Positions 3,115 through 61,894 of a stretch of 64,000 nt of DNA are shown one piece after another (the stretch's first letter is position 1; every line of letters begins with the position of its first letter). The stretch lies in NCBI GenBank assembly GCA_963774075.1, contig CAVZDP010000001.1, positions 108,572 to 172,571 on the forward strand, read 5' to 3'. The notes below the pieces were generated by a model. The model was not told the DNA's origin, searched no databases, and saw nothing but the letters and a program-made list of their open reading frames with translations. The DNA comes from an uncultured Solirubrobacterales bacterium (GTDB lineage: Bacteria; Actinomycetota; Thermoleophilia; Solirubrobacterales; JBBDJG01). The position numbers were made by a program, and so were the translations under genes.

Positions 3115-10733
<7,619 letters not shown>

Positions 10734-13450: not shown

Positions 13451-13530
13451 CGGAATACCAGGCCGGCTCCGCCGGGCACCTCAGTCACGTGAGCCGGCTG
13501 CGCCCCCTTCGGGGGCTACGCCGTCTCTCG
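13451..13530 (-). repeat. Single copy of the 81-nt GTAG-hairpin element (minus orientation)
   Basis: The reverse complement reads CGAGAGA-CGGC-GTAG-CCCCC-gaa-GGGGGC-GCA-GCCG-GCTCACGTGACTGAGGTGC-CCGGC-gga-GCCGG-CCTGGTATTCCG. This is colinear with the units at 47200-47472. Confidence 0.85.
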
Positions 13531-14801
13531 TCATAACCAGATCAGCGGCCAGCGTCTCGAGATCGCGCCCGTGCGGCTCGATCGAAACCAAGGCGAAGCC
13601 GAGCGCGACCAGCACTGAGAAACCGGCCAGGAACAGGAACGCCGGCTCCTGCGCCGCGAGGGTGGCCTCCGGATCCACGAGGTCGCCCGTTCCGGCGATC
13701 AGTGCGACTCCGAGTGGTCCCACGATCCGCCCCACCCCGCTGACGGCCCACGCCAGACCCATCCCGTGTGTCCGCAGGCGCGTCGGAAACACCTCCGGCG
13801 TGTAGGGGGCGAGGTTCGCGAAGCCGCCGTCAACGAAGAAGGCCGCGGCCACGAGCCACACGAGGAAGAGGGGGATGCCGGCGACCTTTGAGGTGCCGCT
13901 GAACGCGGCGGCGGCCAGGAGCGGTGGCGCTCCAAGGCCCATGACGAGCCCGCAGGTGCGGCGGCCCAGGCGCTGGGGTGCGAACGAGAAGAAGAGGCGG
14001 CCACCGAAGGAGCCGAGCGTCACGAAGACGAACAGGAGCGCGGCCTCGTCGGTGTCGATGTCGAGAATCCGCTCGAGGATCGCTGTATCGGCTGCCCTGT
14101 CCCTCGGGACTGGGAGGCGCTTCGAGCGAGAGCTCCTCTTCGTCGCGCTCGAGGAGCCACGCGATCACGCTGCGAGCCTCCTCCAGGCGGCCCTGATCCG
14201 CCAGCCAGCGAGGCGATTCCGGCACGTAGCGCCAAACGAAGATCGCGAGCAGCGCCGGCAGCACTCCGACCCCGAAAAGCGGCCGCCAGCCGATCGCCGG
14301 GATCAACACGGCGGCAGCGATGGCGGCCGCCATGATCCCGATCGGCACCATGGCCGTGGTGACGAAGCCCGCGACCTGTGTGCGCAGGCGCGTGGGAGTG
14401 AACTCGAGCGTGAGAGGCAGCGCTATCACAGCAACGCCCGCCACGCCGGCGCCGACGACGAAGCGAAGGGCGGCCAGGTACCACCAGCCATTGTCGGGCG
14501 CGGCGGCGAGGGCGCCCGTCGCGAGGGAGAAGGTGAGGATGCCGGCGATCAGTGGCCGTCTGCGGCCGAGGTGGTCTCCCGCGCGTCCCCACGCGACGCT
14601 GCCGAAGATCGCGCCGACGCCGGCGCTCAGGAGCACGATCGCGGTCTCGCCGAAGGTCAGGTCCCACTCGTCGGCGATCTCCGGCACCACGAAAGCGATC
14701 AGGAAGAAATCGAACAGGTGCAGGACCGCGCCCACCATCACCGCGATCGCGAGCAGGTAGAAGCGGCGACTCAGCGGCGCTGCGTCGAGCGCCTCGAGCA
14801 T
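13481..14801 (-). pseudogene. MFS transporter, disrupted (frame switch and missing TM7)
   Basis: The N-half (14801 down to ~14100) has 6 TMs and motif A (GRAGDHLGRRR). The C-half (from ~14090 down to 13481) is in another frame and starts at TM8 (..AALLFVFVTLGSFGGRLFFSFAPQRLGRR..). No TM7 is found in any frame, and the last 15 codons plus the stop lie inside the repeat element. Confidence 0.7.
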
Positions 14802-23791: not shown

Positions 23792-24205
23792 ATGCTGATG
23801 CCTAAGCGGGTAAAGCACCGCAAGCAGCATCGGGGCCGCAGAGCCGGCTACTCGAAGGGCGGCACGACCGTCCAGTTCGGCGAGTACGGCCTGAAGGCCC
23901 TCGACGCCGGCTGGATCACGAACCGCCAGATCGAGGCCGCGCGTGTCGCGATGACGCGAAAGATCAAGCGTGGGGGAAAGGTCTGGATCAACATCTTTCC
24001 CGACAAGCCGGTGACGAAGAAGCCGGCCGAAACGCGCATGGGCTCGGGCAAGGGATCACCCGAGTCCTGGGTGGCGGTCGTGAAGCCCGGGCGCGTGATG
24101 TTCGAGCTCGCCGGTGTGCCCGAGCAGCTGGCCCGCGAGGCGATGCGCCTGGCCGGCCACAAGTTGCCTATCCGGACCAAGATCGTGCTGCGCGAGGAAC
24201 AGTAA
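23792..24205 (+). CDS. rplP: 50S ribosomal protein L16
   Basis: 137 aa, [17 protein letters not shown].....FGEYGL.A. Confidence 0.97.
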
Positions 24206-24266
24206 TGGCCGCTTCACGGACAGCTAAAGGCACGAGAGTCGGCCTCGAGGCCGACTACCGGAACAG

Positions 24267-24494: not shown

Positions 24495-25202
24495 ATGCAG
24501 GACGAAGAGAAGCAAGAGCAGCCCGAAGAGCAGCAGCCCGCAGCCGACGAGGCCGCGCCGGAAGCCCCGGCGGCGGAGGAGGCTGCGGTGGAACAGCCCG
24601 CCGGCGAAGAGCCCGCGGCAGAGGAGTCTGCGGCGGAAGAGCCCGCGGCAGAGGAGCCTGCGGCAGAGGAGCCTGCGGCAGAGGAGCCTGCGGCAGAGGC
24701 TCCCGCCAAGCCCCCCGCTGCAGCTCCCGCCGAGGACGAGGCGGAGCCGCTCACGCCCAAGCAGCAGCGCAAGCTCGCCCGGTCCCGCGCGAATGGAACC
24801 GCTGCGCCGACGCGCTCGGCGGACGAGCGCGCCCGCGAGCGCTCCGAGCGGCGCACCTCCAAGGCCGCGGGACGCACCCGCTGGCGGCGCAAGCAACGCG
24901 AGCGCAGCCACGCCGAGCCGTCCCAGCCTCGTCCACAGAAGGAGCCTGCGGCCAAGGGCGCGCCCAAGGTCAGGCGCGGAGTGGTCGTCTCCAGCAAGCC
25001 CGACAAAACCATCACGGTCCGGACCGACGCCGTTCGCCCGCATCCGCGCTACGGCAAGGTCATCCGAAACACCAACACGCTTCATGCCCACGACGAGAAG
25101 AACCAGGCAAACGAGGGCGACGTGGTGCGGGTCGTCGAGACGCGGCCGCTCTCACGTACCAAGCGCTGGCTGCTGCTCGAGATCGTGGAGAGAGCCCGGT
25201 GA
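24495..25202 (+). CDS. rpsQ: 30S ribosomal protein S17 with ~150-aa N-terminal extension (acidic PAAEE repeats then basic segment)
   Basis: The C-terminal ~85 aa are canonical S17 (..[19 protein letters not shown]...HP.YGK.I....TLHAHDE.N.A.EGD.V...ETRPLS.TKRW.L). One uninterrupted 235-aa ORF, ATG after GGAGAG. Confidence 0.9.
24600..24704 (+). repeat. Seven tandem 15-bp coding repeats (GCGGCAGAGGAGCCT-like) inside rpsQ
   Basis: Units start at 24600, 24615, 24630, 24645, 24660, 24675 and 24690. Three central units are identical. Each encodes an (A/P)AEE(P/S) pentapeptide. Confidence 0.85.
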
Positions 25203-25572: not shown

Positions 25573-25905
25573 GTGGCTACTAGGATCCGCCGCGACGACA
25601 TCGTGCAGGTGATGGCCGGCAAGGACGCGGGCAAGACCGGCAAGGTGCTGCGTGTCGACCCGAAGAAGAACCGTCTCTATGTCGAGGGCCTCAACATCGT
25701 CAAGCGCCACCAGCGACCGCGCTCGCTCAAGCAGACGCAGCAGCGCGGCCAGGTCGGAGGGGTGGTCGAGAAAGAGGCTCCGATCCACGTCTCGAACGTG
25801 ATGCTCGTCGACCCCAAGGACAACACTCCGACCAGGCTCGGCGTGGACCGCTCGGGAGGCAAGCGCGTGCGCGTGACCAAGCGTTCCGGCACGAGGATCG
25901 AGTGA
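25573..25905 (+). CDS. rplX: 50S ribosomal protein L24
   Basis: GTG start within CTAGTGGCT; ..[24 protein letters not shown].. Confidence 0.95.
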
Positions 25906-26708
25906 TGGCAGCGCGTCTCAAGGACAGGTATCAGAAGGAAATACGGCCGCAGCTGTTCGAGCGGTTCCGCTACAAGAGCCCGATGCAGATACCGCGGGTG
26001 GAGAAGATCACGCTCAACATGGGTGTGGGAGAGGCAAAGCTAAATACCGCGATGCTCGATGCCGCGAGCGAGCAGCTCGCCACGATCTCGGGCCAGCGCC
26101 CGCAGGTGCGCCGGGCGCGCAAGTCGATCGCCAACTTCAAGCTGCGCGAGGGCATGCCGGTCGGCGTGAGGGTGACGCTGCGAGGAGAGCGGATGTACGA
26201 GATGCTCGATCGCCTCCAGTCGATCGCCATCCCGCGGATTCGCGACTTTCGCGGCCTCAGCCCACGCTCCTTCGACGGGCGCGGCAACTACTCGCTCGGC
26301 ATTCGCGAGCAAATCATCTTCCCGGAGGTCGACTACGACTCGATCGACCAGGTGCGAGGCCTCGACGTCGCGATCACAACGTCCGCCAAGACCGACGAGG
26401 AGGCCTTCGAGCTGCTGCAATTGCTCGGCATGCCCTTCCGGGCCGAGGGATCGGAGCGCCGCGCCGGCACCGCGACGGAGGAGCCTGAGGCCGAGGATAC
26501 TGAGGAGCCGCCCGCAGCCGAGGAGCCCGTGGTGGAGGAGCCGCCGGCCGAGGAGCCCACCGCCGAAGAGCCGCCGGCAGAAGAGCCGCCGGCAGAAGAG
26601 CAGCCGGCCGAAGAGCCAGCCGCCGAGGCAGCAGACGAGAAGCCAGCGGCCGAGGCCGATTCCACACCAGACGAAACCGAAGAGGAAGGACAGGAGGAGC
26701 AGAGCTGA
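25905..26708 (+). CDS. rplE: 50S ribosomal protein L5 with ~85-aa acidic C-terminal extension
   Basis: ATG at 25905 overlaps the rplX stop (GTG at 25902 is an alternative). Canonical L5 runs to ~aa 180 (..[23 protein letters not shown]..). The tail is [42 protein letters not shown]... Confidence 0.94.
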
Positions 26709-32739: not shown

Positions 32740-32853
32740 GTGAAGGTCAGAGCATCGGTGAAGCCAATGTGTGAGAAGTGCAAGGTGATCCGCCGCCGCG
32801 GATCCGTGCTCGTGATCTGCAAGAACCCCCGCCACAAGCAGAGGCAGGGCTGA
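32740..32853 (+). CDS. rpmJ: 50S ribosomal protein L36
   Basis: Below the ORF-track size cutoff. Own translation from GTG 32740: (M)[36 protein letters not shown]. Confidence 0.95.
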
Positions 32854-32915
32854 ATATTGGGCAGCTTCGCTGACACCTACGGTCCAGAACGCCGGCCTAT
32901 GGCCGTCGCCTGAAC

Positions 32916-34470: not shown

Positions 34471-35430
34471 GTGTTGGATTTCCAGGTTCCCAAGATCACA
34501 GCAGAGAACGTCGAGGACAACCGCGGCTCGTTCACGGTCGAGCCGCTAGACCGCGGGTTCGGCTACACGTTCGGCAACTCATTGCGGCGCGTGTTGCTGT
34601 CCTCGCTGGCAGGCGCCGCCGTGACGTCCATCCGGATCGAGGGCGTCGCGCACGAGTTCTCGACCATCTCCGGCGTCAAGGAGGACGTCACCGACATCGT
34701 GCTCAATCTGAAGGACATCGTCTGCCGCATGCACGGCGAGGCGGACGAGATCGAGGCTCCGCTCGTCATCACCGGCCCCGGCGAGGTGAAGGCGAAGGAC
34801 ATCGACCTTCCGTCGGGGGTCGAGATCCTCAACCCCGGCGCCCACATAGCCACACTCGAGAAGAAGGCGAAGCTCGAGATGTACCTCACGATCGGCCGCG
34901 GCCGCGGCTACCGCCCGGCCGAGGGCAACAAGTCGCCCGATCACCCCATCGGGGTGATCCCGATCGACTCGATCTTCTCGCCCGTCCGGCGTGTCTCCTA
35001 CGAGGTCGCGCAGGCCCGCGTCGGCCAGCGCACCGACTTCGACAAGCTGACGCTCGACATCGAGACCGACGGATCCGTTGACCCGCAGGCGGCGCTTCGC
35101 GAGGGGGCGGAGGTGCTGATCAAGAGCCTCTCGATCTTCACCGATGCCAGCCGCATCGAGAGCCTGAGCCTGCCTGCCGACGGTGCCGCGGAGCTGGCGG
35201 CGGTCGCGACCAGCCCGGTCGCGGACGGCATGGACGAGATCCTGATCGAGGAGCTCGAGCTCGGCGTTCGCTCATACAACTGCCTCAAGCGCGCCGGCAT
35301 CCAGACCATCGGCGATCTTGTCCAGAAGTCGGAAGGCGAGCTGAGCGCGATCCCCAACTTCGGCCGCAAGAGCATCGACGAGGTGAAGGAAACGCTGCGA
35401 GTGCGCGGGCTCGGCCTGCGCGACGACTAG
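34471..35430 (+). CDS. rpoA: DNA-directed RNA polymerase subunit alpha
   Basis: GTG start; 319 aa; ..G.F.VEPL.RGFGYT.GN.LRR.LLSSL.GAAVT...I.GV.HEFS.I.GV.ED.. Confidence 0.97.
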   Translation: MLDFQVPKITAENVEDNRGSFTVEPLDRGFGYTFGNSLRRVLLSSLAGAAVTSIRIEGVAHEFSTISGVKEDVTDIVLNLKDIVCRMHGEADEIEAPLVITGPGEVKAKDIDLPSGVEILNPGAHIATLEKKAKLEMYLTIGRGRGYRPAEGNKSPDHPIGVIPIDSIFSPVRRVSYEVAQARVGQRTDFDKLTLDIETDGSVDPQAALREGAEVLIKSLSIFTDASRIESLSLPADGAAELAAVATSPVADGMDEILIEELELGVRSYNCLKRAGIQTIGDLVQKSEGELSAIPNFGRKSIDEVKETLRVRGLGLRDD

Positions 35431-35456
35431 CGACCCGGGTGCGTAGGATCCGGCTC

Positions 35457-35810
35457 ATGCGCCACCGCAAGAAGCGAAACAAGCTCTCGCGCGACAGCGG
35501 ACACCGCAAGGCGCTCTTCATGAACCTCTGCACGGAGATCGTTCAGCACGAGCGCGTGAAGACGACTGAGGCGAAGGCGAAGGCCGTCAAGCCGGAAGTC
35601 GAGCGCCTGATCACGCTCGCCAAGCGGGGCGACCTGCATGCGCGACGGCAGGCGCTCGCCGCGCTGAACCAGAACAAGTTCACGGTCCACAAGCTGTTCG
35701 AGGAGATTGCGCCGCGCTATGCGGAGCGCCCCGGCGGCTACACGCGCATCCTGAAGCTCGGGCCTCGGCGCTCCGACGCGACCGAGATGGTCTTCATCGA
35801 GCTAGTGTGA
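35457..35810 (+). CDS. rplQ: 50S ribosomal protein L17
   Basis: ATG at 35457 gives MRHRKKRNKLSRDSGHRKAL.. (canonical L17 N-terminus). The track start at 35439 is an alternative. Confidence 0.95.
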   Translation: MRHRKKRNKLSRDSGHRKALFMNLCTEIVQHERVKTTEAKAKAVKPEVERLITLAKRGDLHARRQALAALNQNKFTVHKLFEEIAPRYAERPGGYTRILKLGPRRSDATEMVFIELV

Positions 35811-35811
35811 C

Positions 35812-36054
35812 GAGAGGCCGCGTAGGCGCCGAAGGCGCCGCAGCGGACTCACGAGACTTTAGGTGTCCGGCGAAGCCGGCTAGATATTCCTTGAGAGGCC
35901 GCGTAGGCGCCGAAGGCGCCGCAGCGGACTCACGAGACTTTAGGTGTCCGGCGAAGCCGGCTAGATATTCCTTGAGAGGCCGCGTAGGCGCCGAAGGCGC
36001 CGCAGCGGACTCACGAGACTTTAGGTGTCCGGCGAAGCCGGCTAGATATTCCTC
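35812..36054 (+). repeat. Array of three head-to-tail 81-bp GTAG-hairpin units
   Basis: Units start at 35812, 35893 and 35974 and are essentially identical, with no spacers. The array sits between the rplQ stop (35810) and the truA start (36076). Confidence 0.95.
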
Positions 36055-36075
36055 GTTGCCCGCCAAGCCATCGGG

Positions 36076-36855
36076 GTGACGGCCTGCAAGCTCATCCTTG
36101 AATACGACGGGCGTGCGTTCGCCGGCTGGGCGGCGCAGCCGGATCTGCGGACGGTGGAGGGCGAGTTGAGCAGGGCGCTCGCCACCGCTCTCGGGAGCGA
36201 GGTGCGGCTGTCGGTCGCCGGACGTACCGACGCCGGCGTGCATGCCTGGGGCCAGGTGGCGAGTTTCGCTCTCCCGCCGAACGCACCGGGGCCGCCGCGG
36301 CTCGTTGCCTCGCTGAACGGGTTGCTGCCGCACGACGTGGCGGCGGTGAGAGCCGAGACCGTGCCGGAGGGATTCGACGCTCGCACGGACGCGCTCTCGC
36401 GCACGTACTGCTACCGCCTGCTCGCCCGCAGCGCTCCAAGCCCCTTCGAGGCCGGCCGGGCGCTCTGGGTGCAATCGCCGGTGGAGGAGGACGTTCTGTC
36501 GCAGTGCGCCGCGGCCCTCGTCGGCAAGCACGACTTCACGGCCTTCACGCCCACCGACACCGATCACGTGCGCTTCGAGCGCGACGTGATGATGACGGAG
36601 TGGCGGCGTACCGGAGACATCTTGGAGTTCTGGATCGAAGCCGACACGTTCATGCGGCACATGGTCAGGAGTCTCGTGGGGACCATGCTCGCTGCGGCTT
36701 CGGGCCGCCTCTCCGTCAGCGACTTCACCCGGCTTCTGGAGGGCGCGCCGCGCAGCGCCGCCGGCCAGACGGCGTCGCCGCATGGCCTCTATCTCGCGTC
36801 GGTCCGCTACCGACCGCCGTCAGACTGGATGCGAAGCCCGCGACTAACATCTTGA
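36076..36855 (+). CDS. truA: tRNA pseudouridine(38-40) synthase TruA
   Basis: GTG start; ..ILEYDGRAFAGWA.QP...TVEGEL..AL......V.L.VAGRTDAGVHA.GQV.. Confidence 0.93.
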   Translation: MTACKLILEYDGRAFAGWAAQPDLRTVEGELSRALATALGSEVRLSVAGRTDAGVHAWGQVASFALPPNAPGPPRLVASLNGLLPHDVAAVRAETVPEGFDARTDALSRTYCYRLLARSAPSPFEAGRALWVQSPVEEDVLSQCAAALVGKHDFTAFTPTDTDHVRFERDVMMTEWRRTGDILEFWIEADTFMRHMVRSLVGTMLAAASGRLSVSDFTRLLEGAPRSAAGQTASPHGLYLASVRYRPPSDWMRSPRLTS

Positions 36856-40280: not shown

Positions 40281-40289
40281 CGGGTTTAC

Positions 40290-40321
40290 ATCGAGCCGGC
40301 TTCGCCGGACACCTAAAGTCC
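40290..40321 (-). repeat. Partial copy (3' half) of the 81-nt element, minus orientation
   Basis: ATCGAGCCGGCTTCGCCGGACACCTAAAGTCC is the reverse complement of GGACTTTAGGTGTCCGGCGAAGCCGGCTCGAT (compare 61855-61886). It overlaps the stop codon of the 40313..42118 gene. Confidence 0.75.
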
Positions 40322-42118
40322 AGTCTCGTCACCTTCGCCACGGCCGCCGGAGTAGCCGGCGATCGTCGTCGCGATCCGATCCTGGACCGACCGCGCCCGT
40401 GCCACGTTGACGCCGTTCATCAGCAGGGCGAACGCGATCCGCTCGCGGTCGCGCGACCAGCAGTAGCCGGCGAGCGCGCTGACGCCGATCAGCGTGCCCG
40501 TCTTCCCCCGGCAGCGACCGTCCGCGGTGGTGCCGCGCATGCGCTTGCGAAGCGTCCCACTCTTGCCGGCGAGGGGGAGAGAGCGGTAGAAGGAGCGGAA
40601 CCACGGTTTCGCCGGCGCCTCCGTCAACAGGCGTCCAACGGCCGCCGGCGAGACGACGTTGCCGCGCGAGAGCCCCGACCCGTCGAGCACCGTGGCGCCC
40701 GCACCCATGTCGTCCTGGAAGCGACGAACGACCGCCGCGCCGGAGAGAGTCGAGCCGCGCCCCGAGAAGCGGGCGCCCAGGCCCTTGAGAAGGATCTCGG
40801 CGAAATAGTTGTCTGACACCTGGTTCGTGTGGCGTACGAGCCCCGCCATTTCAGGCGACTCGACGGCGGCGAGCTCCGACGCCGTCTCTGGCGCGCGCCC
40901 GGTGCGAGCTCCGTGGGGCACCTCGACGCCGCGAGCGCGAAGCGCGGCTCGGAAGCGGTCCGCCACGAACCTGGGCGGATCGGCCTGAAAGCCGCGCCCG
41001 TATCCGAGCGCGCTGCCGTGCCCGAAGGCAAGCGCGGAGAGCGGCCCGACGTACGACGAGACTCTGAAGCCGCCGGCCGGCAGGCCGCGCCGGCTGTCGA
41101 AGAACGTCTCGTCTCCGTACACGCGGCCGGTCACGCTGCGCACTCCGGCGGCACGCACCTCCGATGCCAGCCTCGTCAGGCCGGTGCGCCCGAAGGAGGG
41201 GTCCCCGAACCCCTGCACGTAGAGGTCGCCGGCAAGCGTGCCGCTCTCGGTGAGTAGCCCGTCGGTACTCGCCACAGTTTCGACCCGAAATTCGGCCCCC
41301 ATGCGTTCGAGGGCCGTGGCGGTGGTGAAGAGCTTCTGCACGGACGCCGGGGTGCGCCTGGTCTTGGAGCGAAGCGAAAAGAGCCTCTTGCCGCTCTCGG
41401 CTTCGGCCACCCAAGCGCCCGAGCCGGGCCCCGCCGCCCGCATCTGCGCCAGCAGCCGAGCGGCCAGCCGTTGCTCCGGGGGCGTCGCGGCCGAGGCCGG
41501 CTCTGAGGCGCCGAGTAGGCCCGCGAGCGCCGCGGTAAGGAGCAGTAAGGCGATCATCCCTCTCTTCAACGCGGCGACGGCCGCCTGGGTGCGGTTTGCA
41601 ACCCCAAGCCGCTCGAGCACGCTCGAGACGTGAGAGCGCGCGGTTCGTGGGGAGATGCCGAGGCGACGAGCGATCTCGGCATTGTCCAGGCCGTCGGCGA
41701 GCAGGCGCAGCACCTGGCGCTGGCGCGGGGTCAGCTCGACCGGGTCGCCCACCGGTCCGGCGGCGGCCCGGCGAATGGCGAGCGAGAGCTCTCCGAGCCC
41801 CGCGTTCTTGCGCAGGACGCCGCGGGCTCCGACAGCGGTGGCATTGGCGACGTCCTCGGGCCGCACCACCTCCATGAAGACGATCACCGGCGGGCCGAGC
41901 GAGCAGAACGCATCGAGCTCCGACGGAAGCGGCGACTCGACGAACAGCATGTCGACGTCGCTTGCTGCTGCGGCCATTGCCGACCCCTCGAGGACGTACG
42001 CGTCGGCTCCCCGGCTCGCCAGCAGGTCCGCGAGCGCGCGAACGTAGAGCTCGTGCCGCCCCCAGACGCCGGCAACGAGGCCTCCCCACCCAATCTGGGT
42101 GGGATCTCGGGATGACAC
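40313..42118 (-). CDS. Fusion protein: degenerate receiver + LuxR/GerE HTH + TM/signal segment + D-Ala-D-Ala carboxypeptidase/endopeptidase (PBP4/DacB, peptidase S13)
   Basis: A single 601-aa ORF from GTG 42118. aa ~125-185 = LTPRQRQVLRLLADGLDNAEIARRLGISPRTARSHVSSVLERLGVANRTQAAVAA. aa 188-211 = MIALLLLTAALAGLLGASEPASAA. PBP motifs follow: SVQK (SxxK), SDN, KTGT. There is no stop between the regulator and PBP parts. Confidence 0.8.
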   Translation of the reverse strand: MSSRDPTQIGWGGLVAGVWGRHELYVRALADLLASRGADAYVLEGSAMAAAASDVDMLFVESPLPSELDAFCSLGPPVIVFMEVVRPEDVANATAVGARGVLRKNAGLGELSLAIRRAAAGPVGDPVELTPRQRQVLRLLADGLDNAEIARRLGISPRTARSHVSSVLERLGVANRTQAAVAALKRGMIALLLLTAALAGLLGASEPASAATPPEQRLAARLLAQMRAAGPGSGAWVAEAESGKRLFSLRSKTRRTPASVQKLFTTATALERMGAEFRVETVASTDGLLTESGTLAGDLYVQGFGDPSFGRTGLTRLASEVRAAGVRSVTGRVYGDETFFDSRRGLPAGGFRVSSYVGPLSALAFGHGSALGYGRGFQADPPRFVADRFRAALRARGVEVPHGARTGRAPETASELAAVESPEMAGLVRHTNQVSDNYFAEILLKGLGARFSGRGSTLSGAAVVRRFQDDMGAGATVLDGSGLSRGNVVSPAAVGRLLTEAPAKPWFRSFYRSLPLAGKSGTLRKRMRGTTADGRCRGKTGTLIGVSALAGYCWSRDRERIAFALLMNGVNVARARSVQDRIATTIAGYSGGRGEGDETGL

Positions 42119-47051: not shown

Positions 47052-47119
47052 CCTCCCTTCGGACCCCAGGGGCTCTGCGATAATCCGGCCCGTCTGACCG
47101 GCTCTGCCGGGCTATTCGT

Positions 47120-47193
47120 CGGGGCGTGGCGCAGTCTGGTAGCGCGCACCGTTCGGGTCGGTGAGGTCCCCGGTTCAAATCCGGGCGCCCCGA
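47120..47193 (+). tRNA. tRNA-Pro (anticodon CGG)
   Basis: Manual cloverleaf: acceptor CGGGGCG/CGCCCCG, D arm GCGC-AGTCTGGTA-GCGC, anticodon arm CACCG-TTCGGGT-CGGTG, variable AGGTC, T arm CCCGG-TTCAAAT-CCGGG, discriminator A. CCA is not encoded. Confidence 0.93.
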
Positions 47194-47199
47194 TATATG

Positions 47200-47472
47200 T
47201 CAGAGGCGGCGTAGCCGGCAGAGCCGGCGCAGCCGACTCACATGACTGAGGTGCCCGGCGTCAGCCGGCTGGATATTCAGTCAGAGGCGGCGTAGCCGGC
47301 AGAGCCGGCGCAGCCGACTCACATGACTGAGGTGCCCGGCGTCAGCCGGCTGGATATTCAGTCAGAGGCGGCGTAGCCGGCAGAGCCGGCGCAGCCGACT
47401 CACATGACTGAGGTGCCCGGCGTCAGCCGGCTGGATATTCAGTCAGAGGCGGCGTAGCTGGCTAGATATTCG
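47200..47472 (+). repeat. Array of three full 81-bp GTAG-hairpin units plus one internally deleted unit
   Basis: Units start at 47200, 47281 and 47362. The fourth, at 47443, keeps the first 16 nt fused to the tail TGGCTAGATATTCGG. The array starts 7 nt after tRNA-Pro. Confidence 0.95.
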
Positions 47473-47486
47473 GACAGGCGGCCGCC

Positions 47487-61636: not shown

Positions 61637-61816
61637 ATGGTCGAAGCGACCGTCCAGAGGTACATATGCACGTCCTGCGGGTTCATCTACGACCCGGCCG
61701 AGGGCGACCCCGACGGCGGCATCCCGCCTGGCACGGCGTTCGAGGAGATCCCCGCCGACTGGTTCTGCCCGGTCTGCGGCGCGCGCAAGAGGGATTTTGA
61801 GGTATATGAGGACTAG
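61637..61816 (+). CDS. Rubredoxin
   Basis: 59 aa, below the track cutoff. Own translation: [59 protein letters not shown] (CxxC...CPxCG). Confidence 0.93.
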
Positions 61817-61894
61817 AGACCGCGTAGCCGCCGAAGGCGGCGCAGCGGGCTCACAGGACTTTAGGTGTCCGGCGAAGCCGGCTCGATATTCCGC
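61815..61894 (+). repeat. Single copy of the 81-nt GTAG-hairpin element
   Basis: AGAGA-CCGC-GTAG-CCGCC-gaa-GGCGGC-GCA-GCGG-GCTCACAGGACTTTAGGTGT-CCGGC-gaa-GCCGG-CTCGATATTCCG. It begins inside the rubredoxin TAG. Confidence 0.9.

Follow-up and report, generated by a model that had tools for sequence, protein, structure and literature searches.

A tandem array between rplQ and truA

The window (the whole stretch of DNA analysed here, 64 kb long) carries three head-to-tail 81-bp units between rplQ, which encodes L17, and truA (Table 1). A sequence-only reading of this DNA had claimed such an array; the units are real, and the unit parse agrees with the printed sequence at every letter. Tandem Repeats Finder places the array at 35812–36053 with a period of 81, 3.0 copies, 100% matches, no indels and a score of 484. 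It begins 1 nt past the rplQ TGA (35808–35810) and ends 22 nt before the truA GTG (36076). The 5′ part of unit 1 comprises, in order, a GAG/CTC helix, a G.A pair, a CCGC/GCGG helix, a GTA/GCA 3x3 loop, and a 6-bp stem with a GAA loop; the 3′ part comprises the linker CTCAC-GA-GACTTTAGGTGT, hairpin 2 (CCGGC-GAA-GCCGG), and the tail CTAGATATTCCTT. Both the unit count of three and the 100% identity may be limited by the assembly, a short-read assembler reporting identical 81-bp units as a minimum. A 90-codon frame that runs open across the array is probably fortuitous. The rank of type locus that had been given to rplQ–truA carries no special meaning, because the array is merely one of several insertions.

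Table 1. Element copies, flanking genes and compared spacers (positions in the window; bits and E from the covariance-model search; L numbers denote fetched loci)
Feature	Positions	Strand	Remarks
Solo copy	13451..13531	-	C-terminal MFS ORF (14023-13481) enters by 17 codons and stops at the TGA of GACTGAGG
Tentative weak degenerate copy, short-variant-like	24194..24260	-	15 bits, E ~0.06
Degenerate copy, antisense, rpmJ-rpsM spacer	32849..32912	-	31 bits, E ~1e-5
rplQ (L17), C-terminus IELV*	35457..35810	+	Same C-terminus in relatives
90-codon open frame across array	35807..36079	+	GTG overlaps rplQ TGA (GTGA); TGA overlaps truA GTG (GTGA)
Unit 1 of array	35812..35892	+	101 bits
Unit 2 of array	35893..35973	+	106 bits; identical to unit 1
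Unit 3 of array	35974..36054	+	98.5 bits; same up to 36053, final base differs (C)
truA, GTG start	36076..36855	+	Exact match to database protein P0001
Decayed copy, 5′ half decayed, 3′ half intact	40283..40331	-	GerE/Peptidase_S13 gene ends inside
Second array, three full 81-bp units and an internally deleted fourth	47199..47475	+	Starts 5 nt after tRNA-Pro(CGG) 47119-47194
Solo copy	61814..61894	+	Rubredoxin stop TAG forms its first three bases; orthologous L008 spacer 6 nt, empty
ALDH/PNPOx spacer			Filled in L008, empty in window
NUDIX/rubredoxin spacer			Filled in L008, empty in window
Rubredoxin/aminotransferase spacer			Filled in window, 6 nt in L008

Other copies in the window

The second array, the two solo copies and the partial copy that the same reading had listed were all confirmed, with the boundaries given in Table 1. 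Two degenerate copies that it had missed (32849–32912 and 24194–24260) are both antisense to ribosomal-protein genes, and the latter fills a 61-nt spacer between two such genes. The window thus holds 7 loci and 8 full units in 64 kb, all of them extragenic or overlapping gene ends. In the second array, Tandem Repeats Finder reports 3.3 copies of 81 bp at 99% over 47199–47462, after which the shortened unit reaches ~47475; all three frames of this tRNA-Pro-linked array are closed. The pattern AGGTGYCCGGC-N3-4-GCCGGC matched nine times in the window against 0.00 in dinucleotide shuffles, and GTAG-S6-N2-6-S6-GCAG matched five times against 0.04.

The GerE/Peptidase_S13 gene has lost its native stop, which follows ...AGYSG in orthologues, and continues for 10 additional codons to the TAG of CTTTAGG in the decayed copy. 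Directly upstream of the copy at 13451–13531(-), an MFS transporter (13481–14801, -) is split into overlapping ORFs, the N-terminal half at 13830–14801 and the C-terminal half at 13481–14023; the split is either a frameshift/pseudogene or a sequencing error. As a separate observation, in-frame 15-bp (and 45-bp) tandem repeats at 24570–24706 and 26502–26654 (also 2389–2463) encode Ala/Glu/Pro-rich low-complexity extensions in the ribosomal-protein operon ORFs 24495–25202 and 25902–26708.

Anatomy of the element

Alignment of 15–22 copies yielded a family architecture of four parts: the 5′ module and the unpaired linker after it are conserved, the second hairpin varies, and the tail is AT-rich. 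The family consensus reads (TAG)GGACAAC-GAGAGRCSGC-GTA-stem-RNA-stem-GCA-GCSGRC-TCAC-NN-GACTTTAGGTG-hairpin-GATATTCC. Within the 5′ module, a 3-bp GAG/CTC helix is followed by a purine–purine pair, a 4-bp helix, a 3x3 loop, a 6-bp stem, and a triloop. The 3x3 internal loop sets GTA opposite GCA (G.A, T.C, A.G) and is invariant in 22/22 copies, while the triloop is always R-N-A closed by C-G, and is GNA in 18/22. GTA is present in 22/22 copies and GTAG in 21/22, the G of GTAG being itself paired and GCA lying opposite GTA. The invariance of GTAG that had been claimed from the sequence therefore holds in the window and fails outside it: one L008 copy has GTAC, and in the short form found in L016 the GTA is itself the loop of a 5-bp stem, the inner hairpin being lost and the linker and hairpin 2 kept. 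The variants of the hairpin 1 stem and the swap between CCGC/GCGG and CGGC/GCCG are as that reading described them.

The linker, CTCAC-NN-GACT(T)TAGGTG, is unpaired and conserved across distant genomes. Hairpin 2 is CCGGC-GAA-GCCGG in the window; outside it, the hairpin takes the form TCGGC/GCCGA or GGC-GA-GC-GAA-GC-GA-GCC with tandem G.A pairs, and in L005 it is duplicated. The tail is AT-rich, (G)ATATTCC, and the unit ends GATATTCC(GA). Many copies outside the window have a 5′ extension, (A)TAGGGACAAC. Unit lengths across the family are about 71–111 bp, and the units of L006 have a third hairpin.

Some loci are more elaborate. In L006 (2866–3200), three copies lie between greA and lysS at intervals of 108 and 111 bp; after each comes a further hairpin, CCGC-GTAA-GCGG (or GCCGCC-TGAAA-GGCGGC), and TTCGATCG, which gives a longer composite unit. 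A composite antisense copy lies between rplR and rpsE in L012 (2376–2561), in which a second, diverged hairpin module separates the 5′ module from hairpin 2/tail. Upstream of rpsE, L012, L013 and L016 all keep the native TAGTACCCTCGAA motif.

Covariation and folding

Among 21 distinct sequences, 97.6% of cells are paired, and in 8/18 pairs both partners have changed (38 cells). Covariation scored 0.313, compared with 0.061 in shuffles (0/500) and at most 0.026 when partners were slid. Both hairpins and the outer helix covary, which bears out the paired architecture proposed earlier, and RNAalifold, unprompted, returned the identical two hairpins. At the purine pair, 15 copies have G.A and 7 have A.G, with nothing else seen (22/22), and both states are mixed across variants of the neighbouring pair. 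Folded as DNA, the top strand has an energy of -20.8 kcal/mol (z = -2.8) versus -18.0 (z = -1.75) for the bottom strand; as RNA, the z values are -1.9 for the top and -1.2 for the bottom. Because folding energy is no more than modestly better than that of shuffles, the case for structure rests on covariation. Two further structural features were considered and set aside: a linker–tail helix enclosing hairpin 2 appears in single folds of some units and is absent from the consensus, and by inspection the sequence pattern of the internal loops fits neither a K-turn nor a sarcin–ricin motif.

G-T/G-U pairs are absent (0 of 376 paired cells). The C-(GNA)-G triloop of hairpin 1 corresponds to d(C-GNA-G), which we take to be a classic, very stable DNA minihairpin motif. 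Together with the better folding of the top strand as DNA, these features hint at a fold formed at the DNA level. A host factor that binds RNA could explain equally well why loop and linker are conserved across genomes.

Distribution of the family

A covariance model built from 11 distinct copies scored the 8 full window units at 79–106 bits on the forward strand and at most 24 bits on the reverse. Overall, at least 22 strong copies were found: 21 full copies score 58–106 bits and a degenerate L012 copy 43.5 bits on the forward strand, with reverse scores again at most 24. Since the forward-strand scores far exceed the reverse-strand ones, the element is strand-asymmetric and not a simple palindrome.

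A strict 20-base pattern, searched against one genome per species (185,579 species), returned 2 copies only, both in one Solirubrobacterales MAG of GTDB. A metagenome scan matched nine soil contigs, and loci of TruA homologues yielded further copies in L012 and the short variant in L016. Overall, about a dozen soil-metagenome contigs and a single Solirubrobacterales MAG contain related copies, and nothing else matched. Within the collections searched, the family appears to be confined to Solirubrobacterales-like soil actinobacteria; from the MAG label and synteny, we infer that its hosts are Solirubrobacterales-type (Thermoleophilia) actinobacteria.

Searched with Rfam at the gathering threshold, the window gave tRNA-Pro as the sole match, and in E-value mode the best hit (E 0.5) was noise. 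A literature search on the motif string and on Thermoleophilia repeats found nothing relevant. Two isolated matches are attributed to chance, namely a viral-contig match (L014), which has no stem and no linker, and a 35-nt plasmid blastn match in Kitasatospora. The sequence-only reading was aware of no described element of such form, and the searches agree with it: neither Rfam nor the literature search gave a real match, nor did the collections of plasmids and viruses. The repeat family appears to be previously undescribed; it adds a new family to a kind of bacterial repeat that is already familiar, and does not amount to a new kind of system.

Independent assemblies contain such head-to-tail tandem arrays too, with two units in L005, three in L006, at least two in L010, where the contig ends within an array, and two in L016; their periods differ. 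Six of the seven array periods (81, 81, 96, 87, 108, 111 and 71 bp) are multiples of 3 (p ~0.02 if loci are independent), and several of these arrays are nonetheless closed in all frames.

Filled and empty sites at gene ends

The rplQ–truA spacer measures 265 bp in the window versus 19 (L012), 30 (L015), 48 (L013) and 107 bp (L017) in relatives, and the element is absent in all four. The L17 C-terminus is IELV* in most relatives and LELV* in L013. Because the L17 end is conserved and the relatives' spacers are short, the 243-bp array is an insertion right behind the native rplQ stop. Other, unrelated hairpins occupy this spacer in L013 (GTCATTCGC...GCGAATGAC, 9953–10000) and L017 (GGAGCGGGGG...CCCCCGCTCC, 480–586), so the rplQ–truA spacer has been struck by different structured insertions in different lineages. 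The rpmJ–rpsM spacer is likewise 62 nt in the window versus 3–10 nt in L016 and L013. At 58–63 kb the window is syntenic with L008 (ALDH 83% amino acid identity), and 3/3 spacers in this block differ in occupancy (Table 1). Since orthologous spacers are empty and the three syntenic spacers vary in occupancy, the element is inserted DNA, not a conserved regulator; the relatives compared are distant (64–83% amino acid identity) and therefore speak to insertion, not to recent mobility. The proposal of a dedicated regulatory device at rplQ–truA gives way to insertion and turnover, the orthologous sites being empty or differently occupied.

The spacers that hold copies are very short. Typically a copy covers the stop codon of a neighbouring gene or sits directly at it, and where filled and empty sites were compared, the stop codon and the 5′ end of the element fell together. 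Every reading frame meets a stop codon within the element, and two window genes (Peptidase_S13 and the MFS ORF) end inside a copy. No target duplication was seen at three filled/empty comparisons, and there are no terminal inverted repeats, the ends GAGAG... and ...ATATTCC not being inverted repeats of one another. Selection alone could give much of the positional regularity, because insertion into such tiny spacers must leave a downstream ribosome-binding site intact. The flanking genes are unrelated and of housekeeping type (nadC–nadA, greA–lysS, valS–folC, ALDH, tRNA-Pro). No transposase was found among 30 ORFs scanned in the window and fetched loci, and no Y1 transposase in the roughly 300 kb examined, including the interval between two inverted L008 copies.

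TAG is the commonest stop codon in this DNA, at 48%, followed by TGA at 39% and TAA at 13% (30/20/6 in the window), according to GC3-based gene calls in the window and L001–L013; its place as top stop is unusual at such high GC (GC3 0.8–0.9). TAG is not over-represented beside the element, given that the background is already 48% (p = 0.45). In L008 (3680–3830, -), a NUDIX gene lies downstream of a sense copy, and from the in-frame TAG of the element to the conserved N-terminus of the gene product (LEELNP) there is no canonical start codon; the gene may use a non-canonical start, or the insertion may have moved it.

Orientation

At 14 loci, the 5′ end of the element faces the 3′ end of a co-oriented gene, convergent pairs being uninformative. 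Between co-directional genes, six copies are sense (rplQ–truA, L001, L002, L004, L006 and L009) and four antisense (window 32.9 kb, window 24.2 kb, L012, and L003, which is intact), and one L008 copy lies in a divergent (promoter) spacer. The rule that every copy is oriented like the gene on its 5′ side, drawn from five loci, stands for those five and not generally; as co-orientation is not a rule (6:4), the argument for a role in sense RNA is weakened. Three of the 4 antisense copies are degenerate compared with 0 of the 6 sense copies, and 6 of the 7 intact ones are sense (Fisher p ~0.03). The decay of antisense copies is a weak hint of strand-dependent maintenance and leaves room for selection at the RNA level. 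Along the window the orientations run -,-,-,+,-,+,+, an interleaving that does not fit the strict lagging-strand/replication-strand rule of IS200/IS605-type elements.

Nature and spread of the repeat

Taken as a whole, the units probably represent a new family of REP/MIRU-like interspersed repeats, structured, strand-asymmetric and non-coding, with the rplQ–truA array a local tandem amplification of one member. We propose that the spread of copies would take place at the DNA level and depend on a protein acting in trans, which would recognise the top strand in its folded form; by analogy with REP/RAYT, a single-strand-specific HUH/Y1-type enzyme would be the obvious candidate. Arrays may arise by slippage or unequal exchange, in the manner of a minisatellite (VNTR), and any effects on rplQ/truA expression, such as 3′ stem-loop protection or pausing, would be a by-product.

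Possibly, the element is a bona fide GTAG-type REP moved by RAYT (TnpA-REP), with hairpin 1 and the 5′ GTAG being recognised and the rest a co-amplified linker; we regard this as a credible reading, if an unlikely one. In 21/22 copies a GTA(G) stands at the 5′ foot of a 6-bp, GC-rich stem whose loop is 3 nt long, which matches the operational description of GTAG-tagged REPs, as the sequence-only reading had recognised (PMC3733652). GTAG REPs are located downstream of genes and often provide the stop codon of the flanking ORF (PMC3733652), and the present copies are likewise extragenic, mostly downstream of genes, and able to donate a stop codon; strand-specific conservation points the same way. 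However, no RAYT/Y1 gene was found in the DNA examined (roughly 300 kb, 30 ORFs scanned), and the conserved unit is about 81–95 nt long and includes the conserved unpaired linker. The short L016 variant, moreover, drops the inner hairpin yet retains the linker and hairpin 2. Every multi-copy locus is head-to-tail, whereas REPs usually form inverted HH/TT pairs, with HT rare; the term BIME-like that had been applied to the repeat thus does not suit it, as none of the arrays (two in the window, and those of L005, L006, L010 and L016) contains alternating or inverted units. Finally, Actinobacteria go unmentioned in the main text of the GTAG survey of 8 phyla (PMC3733652).

A host-selected function in RNA is also possible, and we consider it doubtful. 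The element would then be a cis-acting module of 3′ UTRs or intercistronic RNA, whether a stabiliser against 3′-exonucleases, a processing/punctuation site, or a protein-binding site, and would set truA relative to the alpha operon. The strong covariation, the invariant 3x3 loop (G.A/U.C/A.G in RNA), the single-stranded linker kept across distant genomes, the placement of most intact copies 0–18 nt past the stop codon of a co-oriented gene, and the tendency of antisense copies to degenerate are all consistent with such a module. Sites are not conserved among relatives, however, and copies also occur after a tRNA, in the divergent L008 spacer, and intact in antisense in L003. The flanking genes have no common theme, G-U pairs number zero, and RNA folding is no more than modestly better than in shuffles (z = -1.9). 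The element lacks a U-tract terminator; as to the partial termination that had been suggested at rplQ–truA, a promoter and terminator scan returned nothing, with no terminator-like site (a GC stem followed by a U-tract) in 35400–36400. A host RNA function is thus disfavoured by the lack of positional conservation, the antisense and non-3′-UTR copies, and the lack of a terminator.

It is quite unlikely, though conceivable, that the 5′ module and linker are a candidate recognition site of a dedicated Thermoleophilia protein that places or maintains elements exactly at stop codons in a strand-specific manner. On this view the element would be a mobile one that targets stop codons by a new insertion mechanism, with no TIR, TSD or replication-strand bias, or else a genome-wide RNA signal for gene-end punctuation.

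We consider it highly improbable that the array is a MIRU-like translated bridge, in which the 90-codon frame restores rplQ–truA translational coupling and units that are multiples of 3 keep the frame at any copy number. The GTGA overlaps of ORF 35807–36079 at the rplQ stop and the truA start, the homologous frame open across the L005 and L010 arrays, the MIRU precedent (PMC3184786) and six array periods (81, 81, 96, 87, 108, 111), all multiples of 3, would accord with this idea. Yet the 47-kb array, which has the same period and follows a tRNA, has no open frame, L002, L004, L006 and L011 likewise have the frame closed, and the units of L016 repeat every 71 bp. Substitutions compensate one another in pairing and are not synonymous; the 90-aa peptide has one weak relative among 5.8 billion proteins; and the coincidence of frame at the array has a ~1-in-9 chance of arising at random. 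An assembly artefact or chance repeat is scarcely credible, for although identical 81-bp units in ~3 copies at both arrays match a de Bruijn minimum path and the L010 contig ends inside an array, the family occurs in independent assemblies and samples with diverged units and arrays, and shuffles give ~0 matches.

Relationship to known repeat families

The favoured reading, a new family of REP/MIRU-like repeats, places the element among several known systems. Like GTAG REPs (REP/REPIN, SMAG), it has a short stem, rich in GC, with GTA(G) at the 5′ foot and a loop of 2–3 nt, is extragenic and mostly just downstream of genes, donates stop codons, occurs in clustered copies, and forms sub-families with compensatory stem changes inside one genome. 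Unlike them, it is bipartite at 81–95 nt and includes G.A pairs, an outer helix, a second hairpin and a linker that is conserved but unpaired; its arrays are strictly head-to-tail where REPs form inverted pairs, and its host is actinobacterial.

MIRUs are 40–100-bp units in actinobacterial operons, with empty and filled sites (PMC3184786). The element resembles them in its actinobacterial host, in direct tandem units (40–100 bp) within short operon spacers, in minisatellite behaviour, in empty and filled orthologous sites, and in units that abut neighbouring stop and start codons. It differs in that a bridging ORF is present at the rplQ–truA array and not at the tRNA array nor at most solo copies, in that no tetranucleotide direct repeats flank the insertions, and in its strongly covarying two-hairpin fold.

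With BOX, RUP, SPRITE and the IS200/IS605-derived palindrome-associated elements, the repeat shares a modular, non-coding make-up, sub-terminal hairpins and dispersal beside genes, but no sequence similarity. It has the lack of TIRs and TSD in common with IS200/IS605 derivatives, which also sets it apart from TIR-type MITEs, whereas its orientations are interleaved in the window and show no replication-strand bias, unlike those of IS200/IS605 insertions. The terminator architecture of SPRITE is lacking.

Implications

The covariance model and consensus can be used for masking and annotation, with fewer spurious ORF calls and mis-set gene ends as a result, and with their help the mobilising enzyme can be sought. 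For strain typing, the arrays are candidate VNTR markers; in short-read assembly, they are a known hazard. In other respects the repeat is an ordinary kind of genomic feature. For the biology of the group, the work adds a well-defined, covariation-supported repeat family to an abundant, poorly studied soil lineage, and it suggests that GTAG-hairpin repeats may occur in Actinobacteria, which the 2013 GTAG survey does not mention (PMC3733652).
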